Part shown: positions 3,328-57,122 of the stretch, piece after piece | Position numbering within the stretch: the first letter of the stretch is position 1 | Layout: the number at the start of each line of letters is the position of its first letter | The notes under the pieces: model-generated | The model's database searches: none | What the model was told of the DNA's origin: nothing | The model's input: only the letters and a program-made list of their open reading frames with translations | Program-made: the position numbers and the translations under genes | Assembly: GCA_951406725.2 (NCBI GenBank) | Contig: OX597827.1 | Span: 58,342,001 to 58,406,000 of the forward strand | Direction: 5' to 3' | DNA length: 64,000 bases | From: Octopus vulgaris | Taxonomy: Eukaryota

Positions 3328-3605
3328 AATAATAATAATAATAATGAAATTATTGTATACAGTGCTCAGGTGCACCGCAACTTATGAAAAGTGCGTATAA
3401 AGCATATGCAATAATGAACAGTGTATGAGTCAGATACCTGCTTGTGTGTGTATGGAGGGGAGAATCTCAGGAAGCATGGAAGTTTTGAAGGATGCAGTGC
3501 TCCGACAACTAACAACTGATGCCGGCAGTTTGTTCCATACTTCAGCAACTCTTAGTGTGAAAAAATGTTTCTGAAAGTCATGGGAGCTGTGCTGTTTTCT
3601 GACTT
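3328..3605 (-). mobile_element. CR1-like LINE 3' end
   Basis: Minus frame HDFQKHFFTLRVAEVWNKLPASVVSCRSTASFK followed by a 3' UTR and an (ATT)n tail. Confidence 0.75.
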
Positions 3606-15685: not shown

Positions 15686-35490
<19,805 letters not shown>

Positions 35491-40019: not shown

Positions 40020-40395
40020 TCTCTTCTCTCTATATATAAACGGCAGTTTGTCTGTGCGTGTTTCTGTGTGTCTGTTTGCTTGTACCCTCACCCTGACCAT
40101 GGCTTTCAACCGATTCTGATGAAACTTGACACACACATAGCCCAATATCATAATTCAAAACTAACGCAGCGAAAATTTTGAAAAGTTCCCCCAGTTCTGA
40201 AAAAATCGATAAATTCGACATGGGGTCGAGAATCAGAAACACGAACCACAAACTGTCTAGGGGACGCAACTCCACCTTTTTTAAATCTCAAAACAAAAAA
40301 TTACCATTTTTTTCCATTTTTTGGCTATCACTCTCTAAAAATGCTTTATAGTTATTTCCCTTACAAACCTGAGCAACGCCGGGCGATACTGCTAG
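40020..40395 (+). mobile_element. Non-autonomous Helitron-like element (same family as 48316-48698)
   Basis: A|TC...gagcaacgccgggcgatactgCTAG|T; high similarity to 48316-48698. Confidence 0.75.
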
Positions 40396-40897
40396 TTTAA
40401 AATATTGCTGGTTCTAGAGGAAGTGACTGTGTTCGTGACCTTTGTTAGTCCTCTTATACCAATGAAATTGATGCCATTAGTGTTCTTCTTGAACCATTGT
40501 GAACCCACACCTGCATGAAAGATATGAACAGGGTCAACGTTCTGAAAAGGAAAGGCCGGGGGGCTAGGTTGGAGTTGAACGCAACGAGGATGATTAAAGT
40601 CGGGGAGACGAATGGGTGTGTAATACGTGAGATGAAGTCGCGTGAGCAGAGCAATTTCCAAAAAGCTGAGAGCATTATAATGCAAATCGATCCCAGGACT
40701 TATTCTTTGTAAGCCTAGTACTTATTCTATTGGTCTCTCTTGCCGAACCACTAAGTGACGGGGACGTAAGCACACCAGCATCGGTTGGGGGGAGAAACAC
40801 ACACACATAGTCAGACAGACAGTCAGTTAATCCAGACATGAAAACACGACTCGAGGAACAAGTATAGTGTTATTGGACGCTAAGGAAAGAAAGGAGG

Positions 40898-45539: not shown

Positions 45540-48500
45540 TTAATTAAGTTTTATTTTCTTATAATACTTTCTTGATCTCTGCAATGCCTCTTCAGGATTG
45601 AATAATGGCCGGAAGCCTAAGTACGTCCTTGCTTTGTCATTTTTAAAGGTCAGTGTCATGTTGATGTACTTGATACTGCAGATGGGTGGTTGAGCATTGA
45701 TTTTGACCAAGGGCGATATCAGCCACAAAAACAGATCCCGGATGCTCAAGAGACCATGGATCAACCAATACGGGATGTATACTGGCATGTGCTTGAACCC
45801 ACGGTCATGAAGATAGGGTTCTAGGGTTGTGTAGATGCTGGTCGCAGGTGTGTCGTCGGGCACAAAGAAGTATTGACCTTCTACGTTAGTTAGTTTGTTG
45901 TCGAGGAGTGTCCGATTAGCCATTAGAAACGCCCAGGCCACATTGCCTGCGTAGGATACCTGGAAGATGGCTTTACCATTGCCAACACAGACTGACCATC
46001 CACCTGCGCTATAGGCAGACTGAAGTGCGGAAGGAATAAGGAATGGGTCACCTTCACCATACATGACATTTGGACGCAGCGAAACAGTGTACAGGCGTCC
46101 ACCTGTGGGAGAATAATAAAAATTAGGGTAGAATTCACAGCTTCAGTAATGATGATGATGATGATGAAGATGATAATGATGAGGGTGATGATGTTGTTGA
46201 AGATAATAGTGATGATGATGATTATGAGAGTAATAACGATGGTGATGATGATGATTATGAGAGTAATGACGATGGTGATGATGATGATAATGATGATGAC
46301 TGTTTCCAAGTTAAGCACAAACCCTGAAATTTAGCGGGAGGGGTTAAGCTGATTCCAGTGCTCAACTAGTGTTTATTTTATTGACATTGAAAGGATGAAG
46401 AGCAAAGCCGACCTTGGCAGAATATGAACTCAGGACATAGAGAACCTCAACAAATGCTGCTAAGCATTTTGTCTAGCATGCTAATGATTCTGCCACATCA
46501 CCACCTTAATAATAATAATAATAATAATATCTTGACACATTAGCAAAATGTGAAACCTGAAGACTAAAACAATACCTGTTGTCATAGGTGCCCTAGTAAT
46601 GATAGCAAAAGGGGTTGATTGCTACCTAGCTCAGATACCAGGAAACCCCAAAATGGCAGAAATTCAAAAGTACTCATGGGAACTGCCCATATCCTACGCC
46701 AAATACTCTCTATGTAATCTCAAGTTTTAAAACAAACATAATTTTCTTATGGTTTCTTAAGCATTCTCTAGAACAACACTTTATACAAAACCAAATATAT
46801 GCCACCCTAGGCATAACACCAACATGAACTTCCAACTTGTCTCTTAAGGTCTCTTCAAACTTTGCTATTATAATATTTATTCAAACCCCAGAGAATCTCT
46901 CTCAACACATGGCTATGTATGCTACCCAACTATTCCTGCTCATGATCAGAGAAGCAGATACTGTCAGCCACTAAGGGTTATGGTCAAGCAACATAAGTTA
47001 TGTGGTTATGGCCAGGCAACTGAAAAGCAAGTGCTTATGATCAAGCAAACTGAAAAGCAAATCTGTGATATTGAGCAGAATATTTGCAATAATGATATTT
47101 CTGCTTCAACAACTCAATGCGGAATCTGTGTGAAATATAATGGAAAATAGGTCAGTTTCAAAACGTTGATGTCCAGGTCACAAAAGCAAAGTTTGAAGCG
47201 ACTGGTAGTCAAACCAAGTAAAAGAAAAACAGAATGTGAAGATGAAGCTAGATAAGTGAAGATTTTGGGCTTTCCTCTTACCGTTGGCAAGGTGTGAACC
47301 ATTTGCTCTACAGACTAAATCTTCTGCCTCGTGCTTAGTTTGTGGGTATCCAGGGAAAAGGAAATGGCTTGGTGTGATTGCAGTGTCCTCTGTGCCATCA
47401 ACTATGTTTTTATCTCCTACAACGACGTCTACAGTGCTGCAGAAGATAAGTCGTGGCACACTCATTTCGATGCATGCATGGATAACATTCTCTGTGCCTG
47501 TATGAAAAGGGGAATTAGTAATGGACATTGTTAAGCTGCTCCTATCTACACATACACACATTCTTTACCACATACATATACACTCTCTCTCCGTCTCTCT
47601 CTCACACACATATACACTCTGTCTTTTGTTTCTCACACACAGACACACACACACTCTCTGTCTCTCTCTCTCACATACACAGATAACTATCTGTCTTTGT
47701 CTCTCTCCCTCACACACACACACACATTCTCTCTCTCTCACACACACACATACTCTGTCTTTTGTCTCTCACACACAGACTCTCTCTCTCTCTCAAACAC
47801 ACACGCACACACAATCTCTCTCTCTCTCTCACACATACATCTTTGACACATGTTTTGAAGATAACGCTGATATTATTCCAAAGGAATAAAATGGTGTAAA
47901 AGAATGTAATCTTCTCTTCAGGGAAGTGAAGAAATGAAACTTGTCAATAAGACATTTTAACTGAAAATGATGGATAGTATAGTGATTAACTGAAAGTGCG
48001 AGCCCTCTAACTGAAAAATGACAGTTTGCTATTCACAAATACACCTAAGTCTCTGATATTATCTGATGGTTCAAGTAGGTCTGACGGTGGTGTATATGGT
48101 TGTTTGAGTGTGCCCTCTTTTCCAAAGTGGATGAACTCAAATTTTTCTTTGTTCAACTGCATATATTATTTTTTTGTGCCCACTGAGTTACTGTGCATAG
48201 GTCTGATTGAAGCATCGTTTGATCATATGCTCCCTTAATGACTTTCTGGAACTTAGAGTCATCTACAAATATTTTAATGGTTCTATGTTCAATGGAATCT
48301 GCAATGTCATTGATATCTCTCTCTATATAAACGGCAGTTTGTCTGTGTGCGTGTCTGTGTGTCTGTCAGGTTGTACCCTCACCCTGACCACGGCTTTCAA
48401 CCGATTCTGATGAAACTTGACACACACATAGCCCAATGTCATAATTCAAAACTAACGCAGTGAAAATTTTGAAAAGTTCCCCCAGTTCTGAAAAAGATCG

Positions 48501-51500
48501 GTAAATTCGACATGGGGTCGACAATCAGAAACACAAACCACAGATGGTCTAGGGGACGCAACTCGACCTTTTTAACTCTCAAAAAAATTTACCATAATTT
48601 TTTTCCCATTTTTTTGCTATTTTTTGGCTATAACTCTCTAAAAATGCTTTATAGTTATTTCCGTTACAAACCCGAGCAACGCCGGGCGATACTGCTAGTA
48701 GATATCTTGCAAACAACTTGCACATGCAAGTGCTACCAGTTAAAAGCTCCGTATATCGGAAGCTAGCAAGTGTATGGGGTCATCAGGAGAGAATGCGCGC
48801 CGTTTCGGGGCCTACCTCTCGACGGCATCAATGCGCACCGGCCCCCCTCACTGATATGAGGCCCCGCTTGCTAGATCAGCTGGTTATGATGAACTCAATA
48901 TACTTCTAGCCATCGCTCATCGTCTCTTTTTAACCAAATCCAGTGGCTAGCCTTCTCCACTGTAGATTGGATATCAGTCATGGTGGTATTGACTTTACGA
49001 TGAGTTAGGCCTAACGATAACAACAGTCGTCTCACGCTGTGTCCTACAAACCCTCTACATCCGACTTCGATAGGAAAATGTTCCGCTTTCCAGCCTGCGT
49101 CTTCATATTCCTCGAGGAGGTTTTCATAACGGTTTAATTTTCGAGCTCGAGCGGCGTCCATATTATCTTCGTGAGGAACCGTTAGCTCGACTATATTTAA
49201 AACTTTCTTTCTTTCACACCACATCAAAATATCTGGTTTTTTCGAAACTGGGATGGGAAAGAAAACCTGGCACCCAGGTAAATCTGCAGTTACCTCCCAA
49301 TAGTCGTTCCACTTTTCATTTTTCTCAGGAAGTTTCTTGGTCTTCTTCTTGAAACGGATCTGCTGACCTGGTCGCACGAAGGTAATGAACTCTCTTGATG
49401 GTACTTTTAACGATTTTTCCTCAGTGTTGTTGAGATGAATTTGATTCTTTATAGCATTGAAGATAACCTTAAGGACCAAGTTGTGCCTCCATGTGTACCT
49501 GTTCAATGCTAACGAACAGTTGGAAAGAATATGTTTTAGTGTACCGACTTTTCCACATTTGCAGACGTCATTCTCTAAGACGTTCCATCTTACTAGATTC
49601 GTAGGTGATGGCAAAACATCATAAGATGAACGAATCAGGAAACTCAGCCGAGATGTTGTCCACTTCCACATCTCATCCCAACTTATCTTCCTCTCAACAA
49701 CATGTTCTTCCCATCTCGTCATCTGACCTTGATGAACACATCGGATCAAATGAAGCTCTCTTCTCTCTGCTTCTCTTGTTTTGACGCTGTTGCTAACAAC
49801 AGATCTGCGTTCACACGGCATCATGCTTGCAAACGGTCTGAACTGATCCGCGCCAAAACCAAATCCTTTCCGATGGTTCTGCGTTGCTCCCACCATATCT
49901 CTGTGTGTAAGAGAAGACAAGATGTTGTCAGTTTCTGCTTCTGCTTTCCACTTCCTGGCTGTTTTCACCTCTGGTGGGTTACGCCTGATTTCCATATCCT
50001 TCGATTCTCTCAGCATCATGACCGTCCGTATCTTCCCCAACTTATATATTTCGACTATTGATGCTATTGGTAACTGCAACGAACCTCTTTTACGATAAAG
50101 AGCTGAGCTGTTCAACATACGAGGTAGACCTAGCCACTTTCTAATGAACACATTACATTTTTGTTCGATCTTTTCAACTCGTGACAATGCTACTTCGTAT
50201 ATTAAAAGTGGCCACGCAAGTCGCGGGTACAGGCCGAACTGCAAGCACCAAATTTTATATTTACCTGGTAACTTCGAAACATCAATCGCTGATAACCCAG
50301 CCTCGGCCTGTTTCATAATTTCAATCCCACGACTTCTATCTGACAATGTTCCAGCGTATACTCGTCCCAAGCTCTTGACGGGCTCTTCCTTGACTGTTGG
50401 AATGCTTTCTTCCGATATTCGAAATTTAAATTCTTTCTGCACTCCCTTAACAAATGTCAGACTACGCGACTTTTTTGCTCTAAATCGCATCCTTGACCAC
50501 CTTACACGTTCGTCTAATCTCAAAAGGGCATTCTGCATGATTTGTTTATCTGTAGCTAGAAGTGTCACGTCATCCATGAAGGCTTTCTTAGGCGATTGTA
50601 CATGGGCGATTTGTTCCGAAAAATCTACACCTTTCAAAATCAACTCCATGACTAAGATAAACCACGTGACAGATATTGTACAGCCAGCAGCAATGCCAAC
50701 CTCCAATCGGTGCCAATTTGTTGTAAAACTTCCAGTTGTAAACCTCATTTCGAAACTTTCATAGTACATCCTCATTATTTTGATCACTTTGTCAGGAATG
50801 TGGAAGTGGTCCATGGCTGTTATTAGTAATTTGTGTGGCACTGAACCATACGCGTTAGCTAGGTCGAGCCATACCACGTTCAGACTTTTCTTGTTCTGTT
50901 TGGCATCCTGAATCGCTTTCCAAATCGAAAAACAGTGTTCAACGCATCCAGGGATCCCGGGGATTCCGGCCTTTTGAACAGATTCATCAACATATCCGTT
51001 ACTCTGTAAATATGTCACTGTTCTCCTCGACAGAATTCCCATAAAGATCTTGCCTTCCACATTCAATAAGGATATCGGCCTAAACTGTTTTATGGTCTTT
51101 GCATTGGCCTCTTTCGGCAGGTATATACCTTCTGCCTTACACCAATCCTCTACTATAGTCTCCTCGCGCCACAGTTGTCGGATTAGGACGAAGAGCTTCT
51201 TTCGCAGACGATTGCAGTATTTGTAGACTTTATATGAGACGCCATCACCTCCTGGGGCACTCTTCGCTCTAGCTTTTCTTACGAAGTCATTCACCTCTCT
51301 CTCCCTGATGTCCCCAATCTGGAATTCGATATCAGGTCCTGAGAGATGATTTAGCCCATGTAGAGATGGCAGCGGCTGATTACGGTGCGGATCGCTGTAG
51401 GTTTCCTTGATATGAGCATCCAATTCTTCTTTAGTGCACGATAAAGTACCACTCTTCGGCTCAGTGAACAGCTTCTTAGTAAACCCGTACGGGTCCTTCA

Positions 51501-54039
51501 GAAACTGCCCTCGAGTCCTTTTACTTTCTTTTCGACGCTCATATCGGCGAATATGTCGTTGCACATAACGACATTTCCTCTTCAAATCGTTATACAGCAA
51601 CGCAAGGCCAGGTTTCTCATCTAGTGCAGCACATCTCCATCTCTTTCTTAAGTCGGACTTTTCCTTCCTCAACTGCTGCATTTTTCTGATCCTCCTGCTT
51701 GGTCCACACTTTCCTTTCTCTAGTCGGATATTCTCTTTTATTCCAAATAAATCTCTTGCTACATCGTATATTGAGCTTGATAATTTTCCCAGTTTTTCCA
51801 CTGTAGAGCCTGTCATTTTATAAAGAGTCCGACAAACCTTGTTTTCAAACTCTTTATATTTCACTTTCTCATTAGCAGCAGGCCACAAAACCCTCGGTTT
51901 CCTCTGAGTATTATCCGATGCACCAGTTTCATGACTTGTAGTTTCTTCACGTGAAGAGTTCTGTGCTGTAGCATTTATCGATCCGCTGTGGTTTGAGTCC
52001 GGGGATGATTTGCCACGTGTTTTACGATCTGACGATCCACACTGCTCTGTCCTCTTCTCACAAGTCTTTCCCTGATGTATCTTCAAGCCTCTCTCAGTTG
52101 CAAAGGTTCTATAGCACAGCTTGCATCCAAAGTTGTTTGCATTTCGTCCGCTGTTCGAATGAATAATCATGTTCGTTTCAAAGGTCGTTTCCGTGCTGAC
52201 TGGGTTTGATTGATTCTCGACTCCCCCTCTCGGTCAATCATGGGGCTGTCTTTTCCTGTTATGTCTGTTACAATAAAATACAGAGGCGAGGATCGTAAGT
52301 CCGTAGCCTCCGCCAGTCTTTCCTGGTGTCGATAGTCGTTCCTATTGTCCGCTGGTCTTTCCGAGCAGTCCTCTTGTCTTTCCAAGATGCCTAACCGTCT
52401 TTCCGGTTTGTCAGTGGTTACCTACCACAAGGTCTTAAATATCTTGCAAACAACTTGCACATGCAAGTGCTACCAGTTAAAAGCTCCGTATATCGGAAGC
52501 TAGCAAGTGTATAGGGTCATCAGGAGAGAATGCGCGCCGTTTCGGGGCCTACCTCTCGACGGCATCAATGCGCACCGGCCCCCCTCACTGATATGAGGCC
52601 CCGCTTGCTAGATCAGCTGGTTATGATGAACTCAATATACTTCTAGCCATCGCTCATCGTCTCTTTTTAACCATATCCAGTGGCTAGCCTTCTCCACTGT
52701 AGATTGGATATCAGTCATGGTGGTATTGACTTTACGATGAGTTAGGCCTAACGATAACAACAGTCGTCTCACGCTGTGTCCTACAAACCCTCTACATCCG
52801 ACTTCGATAGGAAAATGTTCCGCTTTCCAGCCTGCGTCTTCATATTCCTCGAGGAGGTTTTCATAACGGTTTAATTTTCGAGCTCGAGCGGCGTCCATAT
52901 TATCTTCGTGAGGAACCGTTAGCTCGACTATATTTAAAACTTTCTTTCTTTCACACCACATCAAAATATCTGGTTTTTTCGAAACTGGGATGGGAAAGAA
53001 AACCTGGCACCCAGGTAAATCTGCAGTTACCTCCCAATAGTCGTTCCACTTTTCATTTTTCTCAGGAAGTTTCTTGGTCTTCTTCTTGAAACGGATCTGC
53101 TGACCTGGTCGCACGAAGGTAATGAATTCTCTTGATGGTACTTTTAACGATAAAAAGAAGTGGACCCAGTACAGTACTCTGTGGGACTCCACTGATGACC
53201 TTTGCTGGTCTTGAGTGGATGCCATCAACCACAACATGCTGGGTCCTGTTTGTTAGGAAATACCTAATCCATTGAAGTAGCTTTCTACTGACTCCAGTGT
53301 TGGATAGTTTTCTTAACAGTATATTGTAGTCGACTCTGTCAAAGGCCTTGCTGAAATCAAGGTACATGACATCTGCATTGGAGCCCTCACTTAGTGCATT
53401 TAACATCTCATATATATATATTTCTTTACTACCCACAAGGGGCTAAACAAGGAGAGACAAAGCGATTAAGTCAATTCCAACGACCCCAGTGCGTAACTGG
53501 TACTTAATATATCGACCCCGAAAGGATGAAAGGCAAAGTCAATCTCGGCCGAATTTGAACTCAGAACTTAACGGCAGACGAAATACGTGTACGCATTTCG
53601 CCCGGCGTGCTACCGTTTCTGCCAGCTTGCACACACACACACACACAGACACACACATTCACCAACATCTATATCAGAGACACAGTATAATATTCAAGTA
53701 AAAATCATTCAACCAACCAACCAGCAAATCAACCAAACCACCAATCTGTCTGTCTGTCTATCTAGATATCTAGCTATCTACATAACTAGTTTCCAGTCAG
53801 TTTGTCTAACACACCATGCTGTCTACAAATAACTTTCCTGTCTTAAATCACCTGAGACATTAACTTTCTGCATCAATTCAGTATCTGGTCTGGTCCCATA
53901 ACTGACTACACCAGCAACATGGTATACAACATCGACTCCATCTAATGCTTGCATGATATTAGTGTAGTTGGTAACATCACCAATGATGTGGCGGCTAGAA
54001 AAATTGTCTTCGTATTCTGCAATGAAAGAAGACAAACAG

Positions 54040-54073
<34 letters not shown>

Positions 54074-54468
54074 CAAATAAGAAAATGGAGAAACAATTTA
54101 GTTGGTTTATCTGCTTTAGGATATTAGAATGTTGACTTATTTATTTATTTAACACAACAAGAACCATAATAACATACATAAATACATTAAAATTCAATAC
54201 ATATAAGATAAGAATACAATTATAAAAACCTTAATATAAATTATATAAAATCACTCTTACAACTGTTTCAGCCTATGGGAAAAGTAGTTTTCAGTGCCTA
54301 TAGTTGTCAATTATATTGAGGCTGTAGGCATTTAAAACTGGGGTACTTATATATTGCAATTAAAAAACACTTGTGTATTAATAATTTGGGTATTATACCA
54401 GCAGTATATTGGATAAGTATTATCCCTTAGTGGGTTGGATCCACAACCCCTAACTTACTTGGTGTGTG

Positions 54469-54510
<42 letters not shown>

Positions 54511-54743
54511 GGAGTAAACACATAAATGTGAAACAAGGTGGAAAAAAGAGTACTCAAATACCAGTGGTAGAGTAATATGCTTTATTTTAAGCAGCAGAAA
54601 ATTCAACAAAATCTGTTACTCTGAGTTTCTTGTTGCCGTTCATCAGACAGTTTTTGCTAGAATCTAGCAAAAACTGTCTGATGAACGGCAACGAGAAACT
54701 CAGAGTAACAGATTTTGTTGAATTTTCTGCTGCTTAAAATAAA

Positions 54744-54790
<47 letters not shown>

Positions 54791-55478
54791 AAGAGAGGGA
54801 GATAGAAGTTACTATTCCCGTGCATGTTGAAAAAATAGATGCTTTAATGAAACTTCTATAATCCACCTTGATGCGAATAAAAGCTGTCAGTGGGAGAGAC
54901 GAATAGAATAATTTTTTTAAAAATTACTGTGAGTTGATAGTGTACTATAGTTTCGGGTTTAACTTGCAAAATTAAACAAATCGATTTTAAAAAAATTAAT
55001 TTAATTTAAATTTGGCAAGTTTGACCTTCCTCAGCACTATTGCTCCATATTTACAAAGAAACATGAATAATTAAAAAAATATTACCTTATTCGTTCATGT
55101 TGAAACCTGATAAAGAAGTTTAGCTTTCTTTCACTCTTGTTATATATATATATATATATATATACACACGTACACATACACATACATATATAAAACACAA
55201 TATACATTTTATACATACATATGTATATAATAAAAAAGCCTGTCTTATCATCGTTTAGCGTCCGTTTTCCATGCTAGCATGGGTTGGACGGTTCTACTGG
55301 GGTCTGTGATGCCAGAAGGCTTCATCAGGCCCAGTCAAATCTGGCAGTGTTTCTACGGCTGGATGCCCTTCCTAACGCCAACCACTCCGTGAGTGTAGTG
55401 GGTGCTTTTTACGTGCCACCCGCACTGGTGCCAGACAGAGCTGGCAAACGGCCACGAATGGATGGTGCTTTTTATGTG

Positions 55479-55522
<44 letters not shown>

Positions 55523-57122
55523 CATGAATGTATGCATGCACGTGTGTGCATGCATGTGTGTGTGTGTGTGTGTGTGTGTGCATGTGTAAAATACACACAT
55601 AAAGTGAGGTGCTGAAAATTCCTCAGAATGAAAGGTAGACTATATGATGCTTGTGTTTCTGAATGCAGAAAACATGTGTAGACTGGAGAGAAATGAAGGT
55701 AGTATGCACTATTGGATGTGCAGCATCAGTGCACATTGTACAACGAAGTGCAAATGTATTGAGAGAAACGTTGGGCATAAGAGGAATCAAATGTAGCATG
55801 CAAGAGAGAAGACTACGTTGATTTGGACATGTGATGCATATGAATGAGGACAGCTGCATAAAGAAGTGCTGATCACTGAAAGTAGATGGTATCTGTGGAA
55901 GAGGGAGACCCATGAAGACATGGGATGCAGTGGTAAGGACCGATCTCATGATGTTGTGTCTCACGGAGGAAATGACAATGGAAATATCTGGCGATATGAA
56001 GTTCTTGAGAAGACCTGCCCATATCAATGAAACTGAGTTCTAGAAGCACTGTGTGTCTCACCCACACTTAACAAGAAAACTTCTCACACACCCTACCACA
56101 ACAAACCAAACTACATCTCTACATTAGTTCTCTTCCTCGCATTTTCACTTCATGCACTATGCTTACTTCCCACTCCCCAATCCTGTCCTCTTGACCCTGT
56201 GCCACTGTATCACTGCTCTTTGCTAGCTTCCGACCCGTGTGTCCCACCCAGGCCCTGCCTTACTGTCTCATTGTATATGCCTGGCACTTTGCCACCATCT
56301 CTATCTTGCTGTCTCCCACTCTCTCTCACCTTCTCCTGCACTTCCCTCAGGCTGGGTAATCATGTATTTCTTTTGCGGCCGTGCACCTGTTTCTGTTCTC
56401 ATTCCTGATCTCTCTCTCTCTGGCCATGTAACCTTGTACCTCCTCTACTGTATGACACCTTTTTCTGTCTTGTAAGTACTTGGTGACCCTGTCACTGCAG
56501 GTGCCACTTAAAAGCACCCGGTCCACACTGTAAAGTGACTGGCATTTGGAAGAGCATCTAGCTGTAAAAATCTTGCCAAAATTGACCTCACCTGTGCTTG
56601 TGCCATGTAAAAAGCACTGAGTTCATTCAGTGTTAGGAAGGGTATCCAGCTGTAAAAATCCAGCCAAAAAATCACAGAAGTTTGGTGCAGGCTATTATCA
56701 AACCATTTACTCATGCCAGCATGGAAGGTGAATGTTAAATGATGATGATGATGAAACCTTGGGTACTTGATTATTAACTTAAATTCCAACAAATGCCTTT
56801 CTAGTGTCGAGTAATTCTGGTTTCTTAGTAATGAGTGTATATATGTGTGTGTGTATGCGTGCAAGTGAATGTGTGTGTGTGTAAATGTATATGCATGATG
56901 TAAAAAATAACTTGAAATCTAACCATGCATCAAAGAATTTGTTAATGCAAGAATCTCTTTTCTATACATACCTAGAAATTTCTTAATGGGCTGAACATCG
57001 AATGTACGTACTTCACGCACATCATCGCATTTTGTTTGTAAAAGATGTACAATGTGCTGTCCAAGGAAGCCCGAACCACCTGTCACCACACACACTTGTT
57101 TTGCTCTCCTCTCTGGTGCCAT
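45540..57122 (-). CDS. 3-beta-hydroxysteroid dehydrogenase-like extended SDR (HSD3B/HSD3B7-like), 4 coding exons, 364 aa
   Basis: Exons 57122-56972, 54016-53852, 47497-47282, 46102-45540, all phase-1 GT-AG junctions, 1095 nt in total. NAD-binding VTGGSGFLG, VYHVAG, NVSGTENV, catalytic YPQTK (YxxxK), LRPNVMYGEGD, YAGNVAWA. Confidence 0.93.
46148..46300. repeat. Compound (ATG)n microsatellite
   Basis: Imperfect gatgatgat repeats; explains the spurious poly-Met and poly-Ile ORFs. Confidence 0.9.
46545..46720 (+). mobile_element. R4/Dong-like RLE LINE C-terminal relic
   Basis: Degenerate LKTKTIPVVIGALVMI..IQK..MGTAHILRQILSM, next to an (AAT)n run. Confidence 0.65.
47547..47840. repeat. Compound (CA)n/(CT)n microsatellite
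   Basis: Alternating cacaca and ctctct tracts. Confidence 0.9.
48316..48698 (+). mobile_element. Non-autonomous Helitron-like element
   Basis: 5' TC, subterminal hairpin cccgagcaacgccggg, 3' CTAG, inserted between A and T; close copy at 40020-40395. Confidence 0.75.
48763..48874 (-). ncRNA. Putative rearranged (non-circularly permuted) hammerhead ribozyme, copy 1
   Basis: Sense RNA: CUAGCAAG-c-GGGGCCU...UGCGC..GCCGUC^GAGAG-gu-AGGCCCC-GAAA-CGGC-GCGCA-uu-CUCUC-CUGAUGA-ccccauaca-CUUGCUAG. All three core segments and stems I, II and III can pair. Confidence 0.72.
48895..52170 (-). CDS. Retrotransposon polyprotein: N-terminal zinc finger, reverse transcriptase, CCHC knuckle, restriction-like endonuclease (1091 aa)
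   Basis: CKLC..RGLKIHQGKTC; FRPISLLNVEGK, WLDLANAYGSVPH, GIAAGCTIS, AFMDD; CKCGKVGTLKHILSNC, RYTWRHN; KPDI..VELTVP..K, PIEVGCRGFVG. Confidence 0.95.
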   Translation of the reverse strand: MIIHSNSGRNANNFGCKLCYRTFATERGLKIHQGKTCEKRTEQCGSSDRKTRGKSSPDSNHSGSINATAQNSSREETTSHETGASDNTQRKPRVLWPAANEKVKYKEFENKVCRTLYKMTGSTVEKLGKLSSSIYDVARDLFGIKENIRLEKGKCGPSRRIRKMQQLRKEKSDLRKRWRCAALDEKPGLALLYNDLKRKCRYVQRHIRRYERRKESKRTRGQFLKDPYGFTKKLFTEPKSGTLSCTKEELDAHIKETYSDPHRNQPLPSLHGLNHLSGPDIEFQIGDIREREVNDFVRKARAKSAPGGDGVSYKVYKYCNRLRKKLFVLIRQLWREETIVEDWCKAEGIYLPKEANAKTIKQFRPISLLNVEGKIFMGILSRRTVTYLQSNGYVDESVQKAGIPGIPGCVEHCFSIWKAIQDAKQNKKSLNVVWLDLANAYGSVPHKLLITAMDHFHIPDKVIKIMRMYYESFEMRFTTGSFTTNWHRLEVGIAAGCTISVTWFILVMELILKGVDFSEQIAHVQSPKKAFMDDVTLLATDKQIMQNALLRLDERVRWSRMRFRAKKSRSLTFVKGVQKEFKFRISEESIPTVKEEPVKSLGRVYAGTLSDRSRGIEIMKQAEAGLSAIDVSKLPGKYKIWCLQFGLYPRLAWPLLIYEVALSRVEKIEQKCNVFIRKWLGLPRMLNSSALYRKRGSLQLPIASIVEIYKLGKIRTVMMLRESKDMEIRRNPPEVKTARKWKAEAETDNILSSLTHRDMVGATQNHRKGFGFGADQFRPFASMMPCERRSVVSNSVKTREAERRELHLIRCVHQGQMTRWEEHVVERKISWDEMWKWTTSRLSFLIRSSYDVLPSPTNLVRWNVLENDVCKCGKVGTLKHILSNCSLALNRYTWRHNLVLKVIFNAIKNQIHLNNTEEKSLKVPSREFITFVRPGQQIRFKKKTKKLPEKNEKWNDYWEVTADLPGCQVFFPIPVSKKPDILMWCERKKVLNIVELTVPHEDNMDAARARKLNRYENLLEEYEDAGWKAEHFPIEVGCRGFVGHSVRRLLLSLGLTHRKVNTTMTDIQSTVEKASHWIWLKRDDERWLEVY
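52439..53151 (-). mobile_element. 713-bp copy of the retrotransposon's 3' end, fused head-to-tail to the 5' end of the full-length element
   Basis: Direct repeat of 48702-49414 at offset 3737; 3 substitutions seen by eye; encodes the identical RLE C-terminus and the 3' UTR. Confidence 0.95.
52500..52611 (-). ncRNA. Putative rearranged hammerhead ribozyme, copy 2
   Basis: Identical to copy 1 except one substitution in the linker after CUGAUGA; predicted cut between 52558 and 52557. Confidence 0.72.
53152..53408 (-). mobile_element. CR1/L2-like LINE reverse-transcriptase fragment
   Basis: DVMYLDFSKAFDRVD..LLRKL..WIRYFLTNRTQHVVVDG..VISGVPQSTVLGPLLFI; truncated at the junction with the HERO-like 3' copy. 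Confidence 0.88.
54580..54744. repeat. Near-perfect 165-bp palindrome with a Penelope-type minimal hammerhead motif in each arm
   Basis: Arms about 82 bp with one mismatch; right arm reads ctgt-CTGATGA-acggcaacga-GAAA-ctcagag-TA-acag. Confidence 0.85.
55640..56030 (+). mobile_element. RTE-clade LINE C-terminal relic
   Basis: RLERNE..LRETLGIRGI..MQERRLR*FGHVMHM..GRGRPMKTW with stop codons. Confidence 0.75.

Follow-up and report, generated by a model that had tools for sequence, protein, structure and literature searches.

We describe here a retrotransposon in a 64,000-nucleotide stretch of the Octopus vulgaris genome (GenBank assembly GCA_951406725.2, contig OX597827.1, positions 58,342,001 to 58,406,000 of the forward strand), referred to below as the window. 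The element, on the minus strand, is likely a long interspersed nuclear element (LINE) of the HERO/Zebulon group that carries a restriction-like endonuclease (RLE), and each of its two direct repeats contains a candidate hammerhead ribozyme. We conclude that cleavage of its RNA in the cell is likely, as is closure of the product into a circle that would be copied past one turn. In the textbook view, target-primed reverse transcription begins at the 3' end of a linear RNA. The genomic record of this family points to a template with no break at either the cut or the tail-to-head junction. Partial tandems, reportedly in Zebulon, and circle models, for the Penelope-like elements, have been known separately. 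What appears to be new is a pile-up of 5' truncations at the predicted cut, which we take with considerable assurance to be fossil evidence of cleavage in vivo, together with evidence that copying is primed internally, at a fixed position about 119 nt downstream of the predicted cut, beside a conserved array of five hairpins. A circular RNA would be the likeliest step, on a case that we judge to be evenly poised.

Fixed junctions, internal priming and 5' ends at the predicted cut

Positions within the element are given as unit position u on the minus strand, where u1 is 52438, u3737 is 48702 and the predicted cut is u3618^u3619. Two direct repeats of 713 bp each (48702-49414 and 52439-53151) are offset by 3737 bp and differ at three sites (48776/52513, 48937/52674 and 49390/53127). 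Both coding differences are synonymous and the C-terminal translations of the two repeats are identical, so that repeat alignment and translation agree with the original prediction on each of these points. The same prediction saw neither a poly(A) tail nor a target-site duplication (TSD) at this locus, and both observations stand. Removal of a later 380-bp insertion brings the flanks back together as codons, in frame, of an older reverse transcriptase (RT) fragment of CR1/L2 type, with LLFIV on one side of the LINE and YIND on the other, so that the LINE insertion is blunt. Its 5' join has a 5-nt microhomology.

The family, for which we count at least 1209 matches to a 3' untranslated region (UTR) pattern genome-wide, repeats this arrangement. 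Among the 40 best of 95 candidate 5'-UTR matches, 31 reach the unit start and nine end inside its first 94 nt. The fixed junction that had been anticipated in other full-length copies is indeed there: in all 31 start-reaching copies the 3' end of the element itself comes directly before the start, joined at one and the same junction, none stands alone, and their outer flanks differ and lie on many contigs. This is the partial tandem reportedly characteristic of HERO and Zebulon, and its presence in every start-reaching copy implies that the element itself lacks a free 5' end. One segmental duplicate accounts for two of the 31, which leaves 30 independent upstream repeats. These range from 7 to 1974 nt, with no 5'-end pile-up at unit position 1; 22 run past the second cut, eight end before it and none stops at it. 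Second passes are short (median about 308 nt, 25 listed). No unit-spaced pairs occur among 24 exact junction-pattern matches, and no genomic multimer was seen there as a source of long linear templates. Terminal repeats or wrap-around contigs are found in relatives too (L114, L117, L122, L124, L151, L160, L164, L179 and L182).

Some variants of the layout deserve mention in their own right. Seven tandem copies (L038, L042, L044, L052, L054, L057 and L058) have large internal deletions while keeping both UTRs, and are possible non-autonomous derivatives. At L129 (85-3544 and 3824-7266) two related families that are 68% alike follow one another head to tail, and both carry a ribozyme of their own. 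At L109 (C11:84627300-84634600) two near-identical copies, u224-3737 and u1975-3737, stand head to head and have a common private variant and the same outer flank start, as might result from an inversion or a fold-back insertion.

The 3' ends are equally uniform. In a position-ordered sample of 130 copies, 117 end at u3729-3744, which is at the junction and 111-126 nt downstream of the cut, with no poly(A). The sample comprised 110 loci selected through a motif that lies downstream of the cut and 20 selected through one upstream of it, the latter being able to reveal 3' ends at the cut; none of those 20 ends there. Flanks of 110 terminal copies match the continuation of the junction, with C first in 50, then T in 77 and A in 75. 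After CTAA the next base is G in 6 of 12 (against a background of 14%, P 0.003), and after ATAA in one of seven, while C comes next in 9 of 12 full-turn loci (P 5e-6). The full-length copy L092 runs 7 nt into junction sequence at its terminus, and at the window locus the three matching terminal bases come from target codons. These flanks suggest priming on an RNA whose tail continues into the 5' UTR, and we consider it highly probable that the template carried the junction.

The hairpin array adjoins this priming site on its 3' side, within the 5' UTR, and the window copy is damaged in its third stem and fourth loop. Across 80 related metagenome loci (293 kb), whose proteins are 32-70% identical and many of which lack UTRs, a search for hexaloop-hairpin clusters returned 19 in sense orientation (about 17 of which are the array), none in antisense and none in shuffled sequence, and the stems vary freely. 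We infer that the array binds the element's protein. A separate observation concerns its loops: six of the nine copies truncated in the 5' UTR start in a hairpin loop (L053, L058, L047, L059, L342 and L344; u36-78), three of them exactly at u78. These starts could reflect a protein-bound stall or another RNA end.

Insertion is mostly not site-specific, as judged from unrelated flanks, a weak N-T-A bias and some (TA)n. TSDs exist in a minority of copies: candidates of at least 8 nt were found in 9 of 100, compared with 0.8 by shuffling, although about half lie in simple repeats. When transduction was sought through shared 3' flanks, only simple repeats were shared.

Evidence for cleavage comes from the opposite end of the copies. 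The 5' end is in view in 114 of the 130 sampled copies, and the commonest single position is u3619, with four copies against a local rate of 0.14 per nt (P about 1e-5). Copies whose homology ends within u3612-3627 were sought with a pattern across the whole genome, and the 31 matches were classed by their matched letters and, for 16, also from fetched sequence (L297-L300 by pattern letters only). Nine start exactly at u3619, two at u3617-3619 with a 2-nt microhomology, one at u3620 and one at u3612. Another (L288) joins u3619 to u2176, three (L294-L296) are short internal deletions ending near the cut, one (L292) lies inside a longer copy and was dropped, and 13 are shifted read-through copies or unclear. 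Thus, nine of 13 simple truncations in this 16-nt window fall exactly at the cut, with two more ambiguous because of microhomology (P about 8e-9). An upstream control window gave 28 matches, in which, by eye, about ten truncations are spread over roughly eight positions (u3605-3612) and about nine are microhomology deletions. The resulting stubs of about 120 nt have unrelated flanks and mostly end at u3737-3741. Furthermore, in a distant family, the first nucleotide of L125, a copy that bears an open reading frame (ORF), lies within 1 nt of the cut predicted for that copy. The cut positions given for both repeats by the original prediction were right, and its GUC^GAG site is marked independently by this sharp pile-up. 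Because insertions of about 120 nt start exactly there, the genome lends indirect support to site-specific self-cleavage, and we have little doubt that the putative ribozyme cleaves its RNA in vivo. A stall of the RT at this point seems unlikely, since all helix partners would already have been copied.

The 5' ends of single and tandem copies also concentrate more broadly at u3325-3525, at a distance of 200-400 nt from the priming site, and form minor clusters near u3371, 3412-3429, 3442 and 3495. One possibility is that transcription starts within the repeat.

In about 96% of copies the sequence runs through the cut: 110 of the 114 have no end there, although three of these end downstream of it. 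A single indel occurs at the cut site in 133 copies, and a search of copies for scars at this site found none. Such seamless reading requires a template that was uncut, re-ligated or jumped with base precision.

A split-core hammerhead fold

Every nucleotide of the hammerhead core is present in both repeats, and to this extent the predicted hammerheads hold. Their topology is not that of types I, II or III, because the motifs come in the order GUC, GAAAC, CUGAUGA, which is barred in those types, and the strands in the order II, III, I, II', III', I'. Canonical readings were rejected for this reason. A scan of 46000-56000 with Rfam models returned no hammerhead and no hepatitis delta virus (HDV) ribozyme among 46 matches at E<=5, and minimum-energy folding did not return the pseudoknot. 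We propose that the fold is a split-core, triply crossing hammerhead whose core would be interrupted between A9 and G10.1. The original prediction had noted neither this unusual wiring nor the internal priming site and the hairpin array of the 5' UTR.

To ask how general this fold is among the 80 related loci, a motif scan required the order II, III, NUH, I, II', GAAA, III', I', CUGAnGA. It found 32 sense matches in 30 loci, and none in antisense or shuffled sequence. The 27 non-redundant folds all keep NUH, CUGAnGA, GAAA and G10.1, with the cleavage triplet GUU, GUC, GUA, AUA or CUA; G stands at 10.1 in 27 of 27, where the scan favoured it only on ties. Individual columns of stems I-III contain as many as six types of pair. 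Since the scan demanded that these stems pair, their pairing is not itself evidence, and support comes from the variety of pair types and from the counts of 32, zero and zero. The features of a hammerhead core are therefore all found here: CUGAnGA, GAAA, NUH, a G10.1-C11.1 pair and three stems with varying pairs. Helices that the scan did not demand also exceed shuffled sequence, namely the outer clamp that begins right after A9 (mean 9.1 against 5.4 bp) and P4 (6.0 against 3.9 bp).

The order of blocks agrees with that of the type-SGC hammerheads (S-G-C), whereas block C is not intact, having no stem II strand directly 3' of CUGAnGA. The bases after this motif pair as stem II in none of the 27 folds and form the separate clamp, and a type-SGC reading was rejected on these grounds. 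Twister and pistol readings, weighed by eye against their consensus, were dropped as well. A different repeat with GAAA and CUGAUGA in the same order occurs on the opposite strand of some related loci (L162, L173 and L183, all minus).

Features of the element and of the downstream ribozyme fold, in window positions
Feature	Position	Strand	Remarks
Split-core hammerhead, upstream copy	52501..52610	-	predicted cut 52558^52557
Split-core hammerhead, downstream copy	48764..48873	-	predicted cut 48821^48820
Downstream fold, P0 outer clamp	48873-48862 with 48779-48764	-	
Downstream fold, hairpin P5	48861-48846	-	
Downstream fold, stem II	48845-48840 with 48812-48807	-	
Downstream fold, P4	48838-48833 with 48798-48793	-	
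Downstream fold, stem III	48826-48822 with 48803-48799	-	
Downstream fold, C17	48821	-	
Downstream fold, stem I	48820-48815 with 48792-48787	-	
Downstream fold, GAAA	48806-48803	-	
Downstream fold, CUGAUGA	48786-48780	-	
Upstream partial copy (u3025-3737, the final 713 nt)	52439..53151	-	has variants 3049A and 3502A, common to L072 and L074
Fixed 3'-end/5'-UTR junction	52432..52445	-	same sequence window primes new insertions (u3734-3744)
Segment from predicted cut to priming site, 119 nt	48702..48820	-	occurs alone elsewhere in the genome as insertions of about 120 nt
Array of five stem-loops	52313..52408	-	same GAAAGA-type hexaloop, GAC-like spacer before each; loops near 52403, 52382, 52361, 52341, 52322
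Single ORF	48895..52241	-	C2H2-like finger, RT (FMDD), CCHC knuckle, restriction-like endonuclease with PD-x12-E-x-T; first ATG (52241) not in frame in this copy, in-frame Met 52170
Target, old CR1/L2-type RT fragment	53152..53400, continues at about 48150-48320	-	split by the element and by the later 380-bp insertion

A proposed circular template and its rivals

The 5' start was seen in no form other than the partial tandem with its single fixed junction. From this form, we envisage that a read-through transcript, possibly a host pre-mRNA, would carry two ribozymes, and that cuts at GUC^GAG would release a unit RNA of 3737 nt. The protein would bind the hairpin array and prime internally just 5' of it, aided by a match of a few bases between target and RNA. 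The cut ends would be held together by about 28 bp in P0, II, P4 and III, an arrangement that ties them in a way that would favour ligation, and could be joined by the ribozyme itself or by a host ligase, perhaps of the RtcB type; RNAs left unligated would give the 119-nt stubs. Copying beyond 3737 nt would then rebuild the upstream repeat and leave a daughter that is competent again. Template switches between RNAs would occur too, as at the window locus.

A covalently closed circle seems to us about as probable as all its competitors together. It would account for the fixed junction, the missing 5' start, internal priming without poly(A), the seamless read-through and the stubs, and it would renew both ends, which in each generation would otherwise become shorter. 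Locus-only variants common to both repeats in L091, L092 and L097 are as expected from one template read twice. A bolder proposal, which we find plausible if still short of probable, extends this to a whole clade of autonomous animal RLE LINEs whose replication would pass through a circular RNA that also codes for protein: a hammerhead wired in a way not described before would cut the unit and, as four helices hold the cut ends, re-ligate it unaided, and the protein, docked on the array 3' of an internal priming site, would need neither an RNA 3' end nor poly(A) and would roll past one turn.

Several points weigh against the circle. The window repeats differ at two lineage-marking sites, the upstream one having two variants that are common to L072 and L074 and missing from the downstream one. 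Two RNAs were therefore used at this locus, which one circle cannot explain. The proposal that copying past one turn regenerates the tandem finds its support in the family-wide junction, and the window locus itself is not one template copied 1.19 times. The repeats of L091 differ at 11 of 1971 sites. Short second passes, like first-pass truncations, also fit a fresh start after a jump or a transcription start within the repeat. L125, which starts at the cut, calls for a template cut upstream yet continuous downstream, or for a jump, and a circle alone explains neither it nor the window mosaic. The N-T-A bias of the 3' flanks could be an endonuclease preference and not RNA pairing. A ligated circle has the same sequence as a tandem, such that contigs cannot show ends or circles, and the model offers no account of how a circle would be translated. 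Linkage across the cut site is no lower than on one side of it, which is uninformative. No spliced joint in the 5' UTR appears among the contig matches listed.

Two rivals retain a linear template. A terminally redundant RNA that stays mostly uncut might start in or before the upstream repeat, undergo fractional, R2-like 5' cutting and rebuild long repeats by homology-guided strand transfer in the style of long terminal repeat (LTR) elements. We regard this as unlikely, if serious: the cut accounts for only four of 114 5' ends, L125 extends from the cut into the ORF, the window locus is a mosaic, and single and tandem 5' ends both concentrate at u3325-3525, but none of the 30 upstream repeats in this genome stops at the cut, the junction sequence extends into terminal flanks, those of a full-length copy included, and a core kept intact across 32-60% protein identity is hard to square with a minor activity. 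Alternatively, unit-length RNAs might never be ligated, with the RT priming 119 nt from the 5' end and jumping end to end, at each pass, onto the 3' end of the same or another unit RNA. R2 RT is capable of template jumping, and failed jumps would yield 119-nt stubs; such jumps would also explain the window mosaic, L125, L288 (cut joined to u2176) and the short second pass. We think this account rather improbable, because it needs more than 99% of jumps to land with base precision on a cyclic-phosphate end (one indel in 133), and three loci have locus-only variants in both repeats. The deletions L294-L296 were considered as jump products and then downgraded to weak support, since similar microhomology deletions end at u3612-3613 too.

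The remaining rivals dispense with the ribozyme or with the layout. If the fold did not cut, the 5' pile-up would be a transcription start or RT stop coinciding with the predicted scissile bond. The fold is predicted from sequence, has no Rfam match and has a core interrupted between A9 and G10.1, which is assumed to be impossible in PMC10085705. Nevertheless, we give this explanation very little credence, given the single-base coincidence with a site predicted beforehand, the 27 of 27 non-redundant folds that keep NUH, CUGAnGA, GAAA and G10.1, the same site marked in a distant family by L125, and the likelihood that no structure would be left to stall an RT that had already copied the helix partners. 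That one copy was inserted by chance beside another, or that the tandem is an assembly artefact, were possibilities raised with the original prediction. The window repeats do come from different lineages, L129 has two families head to tail, and no sequencing-run contig bridges the junction by 31 nt on both sides among the matches listed. With the same junction in 31 of 31 copies, different outer flanks, many contigs, no copy standing alone and recurrence of the layout in relatives, both are refuted for the family, and we attach next to no weight to them.

Internal priming on a template continuous across cut and junction offers a direct way to test a long-standing question, how partial-tandem retroelements such as Penelope-like elements and Zebulon regenerate their repeats, in a family that is young and whose ORF appears complete. 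The pile-up offers indirect in vivo evidence for a working hammerhead with an interrupted core, contrary to the assumption in PMC10085705. The genomic record suggests, moreover, that circular RNA might serve an RLE retrotransposon as template, a point of relevance to RNA-based gene insertion.

The element, its surroundings and known systems

The single ORF has the architecture of an RLE-type non-LTR retrotransposon, with an RT domain (PF00078, E 5e-19) followed by a CCHC knuckle at residue 870 and a PD-(D/E)xK-type endonuclease, the PD-x12-E-x-T motif of which lies at 979 and occurs in 28 of 34 aligned proteins. The best PDB matches are R2 proteins (E 2e-45). Of 7986 scored candidates, 565 are relatives at E<=1e-30, the best being 63% identical. 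The original prediction had called the element intact, which is doubtful: the window copy keeps 1091 codons from its second Met (52170), but a run of five G near 52222 puts the first ATG (52241) in a frame of 24 codons. Six G are present instead in three of eight translated full-length genomic copies (L092, L095 and L097) and in contigs of all eight sequencing runs. Only the six-G form has the first ATG in frame, giving an ORF of 1115 aa in L092 and L095, and the missing G at the window locus may be a homopolymer error of the assembly. The HERO label reflects motifs and architecture that we take to be those of this clade. Dispersed insertion agrees with it, in that HERO elements are described in PMC4640811 as inserting mostly non-site-specifically.

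The element lies in an intron of a 3-beta-HSD-family gene, in the same sense, between exons 53853-54017 and 45543-46142 (minus strand). Host pre-mRNA would therefore carry both ribozymes, and an active pair would cut it. The window holds further features. A non-autonomous element of about 380 bp that starts with ACTAG (48321-48699, minus strand), possibly Helitron- or Helentron-like, stands 2-3 nt from the LINE 3' end, with a second copy at about 40025-40400. A near-perfect inverted repeat at 54575-54749, with 87-nt arms that are 98% complementary and 1 nt apart, resembles a miniature inverted-repeat transposable element (MITE). Long host-gene exons on the plus strand (23465-25681 and 32365-33090) have no Pfam match, and their motifs are suggestive of a KDM3/JMJD1-type demethylase.

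Among the closest known systems is Zebulon of pufferfish, which reportedly has a single ORF with an RT and a C-terminal RLE, dispersed insertion and a partial tandem structure, all of which are features of the octopus element. A literature search found no paper that links HERO or Zebulon to a ribozyme, fixed internal priming, a hairpin array or a circular template, although subscription papers, Repbase Reports or the supplements of PMC10085705 could hold one.

The ribozyme is similar to the type-SGC non-circularly permuted hammerheads, of which HRIMA-1 is an example, that cleave in vitro (Eckert et al. 2023, PMC10085705). The two have in common the block order of cleavage site, GAAA and CUGAnGA, a short linker between stems I and II, and multiple pseudoknots. 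They differ in that the type-SGC stem II strand directly follows CUGAnGA, in a block assumed there to tolerate no interruption, whereas in the window element it lies upstream of the cleavage block. Type-SGC ribozymes are found in metatranscriptomic circular RNAs, while the split-core fold resides in an animal LINE.

Penelope-like elements provide a close precedent for the layout, having a partial tandem with a hammerhead in each repeat, and their pseudo-LTR (pLTR) hammerheads have been proposed to permit cleavage, ligation to circles and reverse transcription of more than one unit (Cervera and de la Pena 2014, PMC4209133). Those elements combine a GIY-YIG endonuclease and a telomerase-like RT with minimal type I hammerheads, whereas the octopus element has an RLE motif, an R2-like RT and a ribozyme of different wiring. 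Evidence from a genomic 5'-end pile-up is not given in the passages of PMC4209133 on Penelope-like elements.

In R2, another RLE LINE and the source of the nearest solved protein structures, the cut of an HDV-like ribozyme is likewise recorded in the 5' junctions of genomic insertions (Eickbush et al. 2013, PMC3774820). There the HDV fold lies at the 5' end, the target is 28S rDNA and the cut defines the 5' ends of full-length copies. The window element has no 5' HDV-like ribozyme and no fixed target such as 28S rDNA, and its putative hammerhead lies in the 3' UTR, where full-length copies run through the cut. Finally, retrozymes give rise to circular RNAs from hammerhead-processed repeats (PMC7229834 and bioRxiv 10.64898/2026.07.22.740005). 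Retrozymes are non-coding and non-autonomous, whereas the window element, with an ORF of 1091-1115 aa, encodes its own RT and endonuclease.

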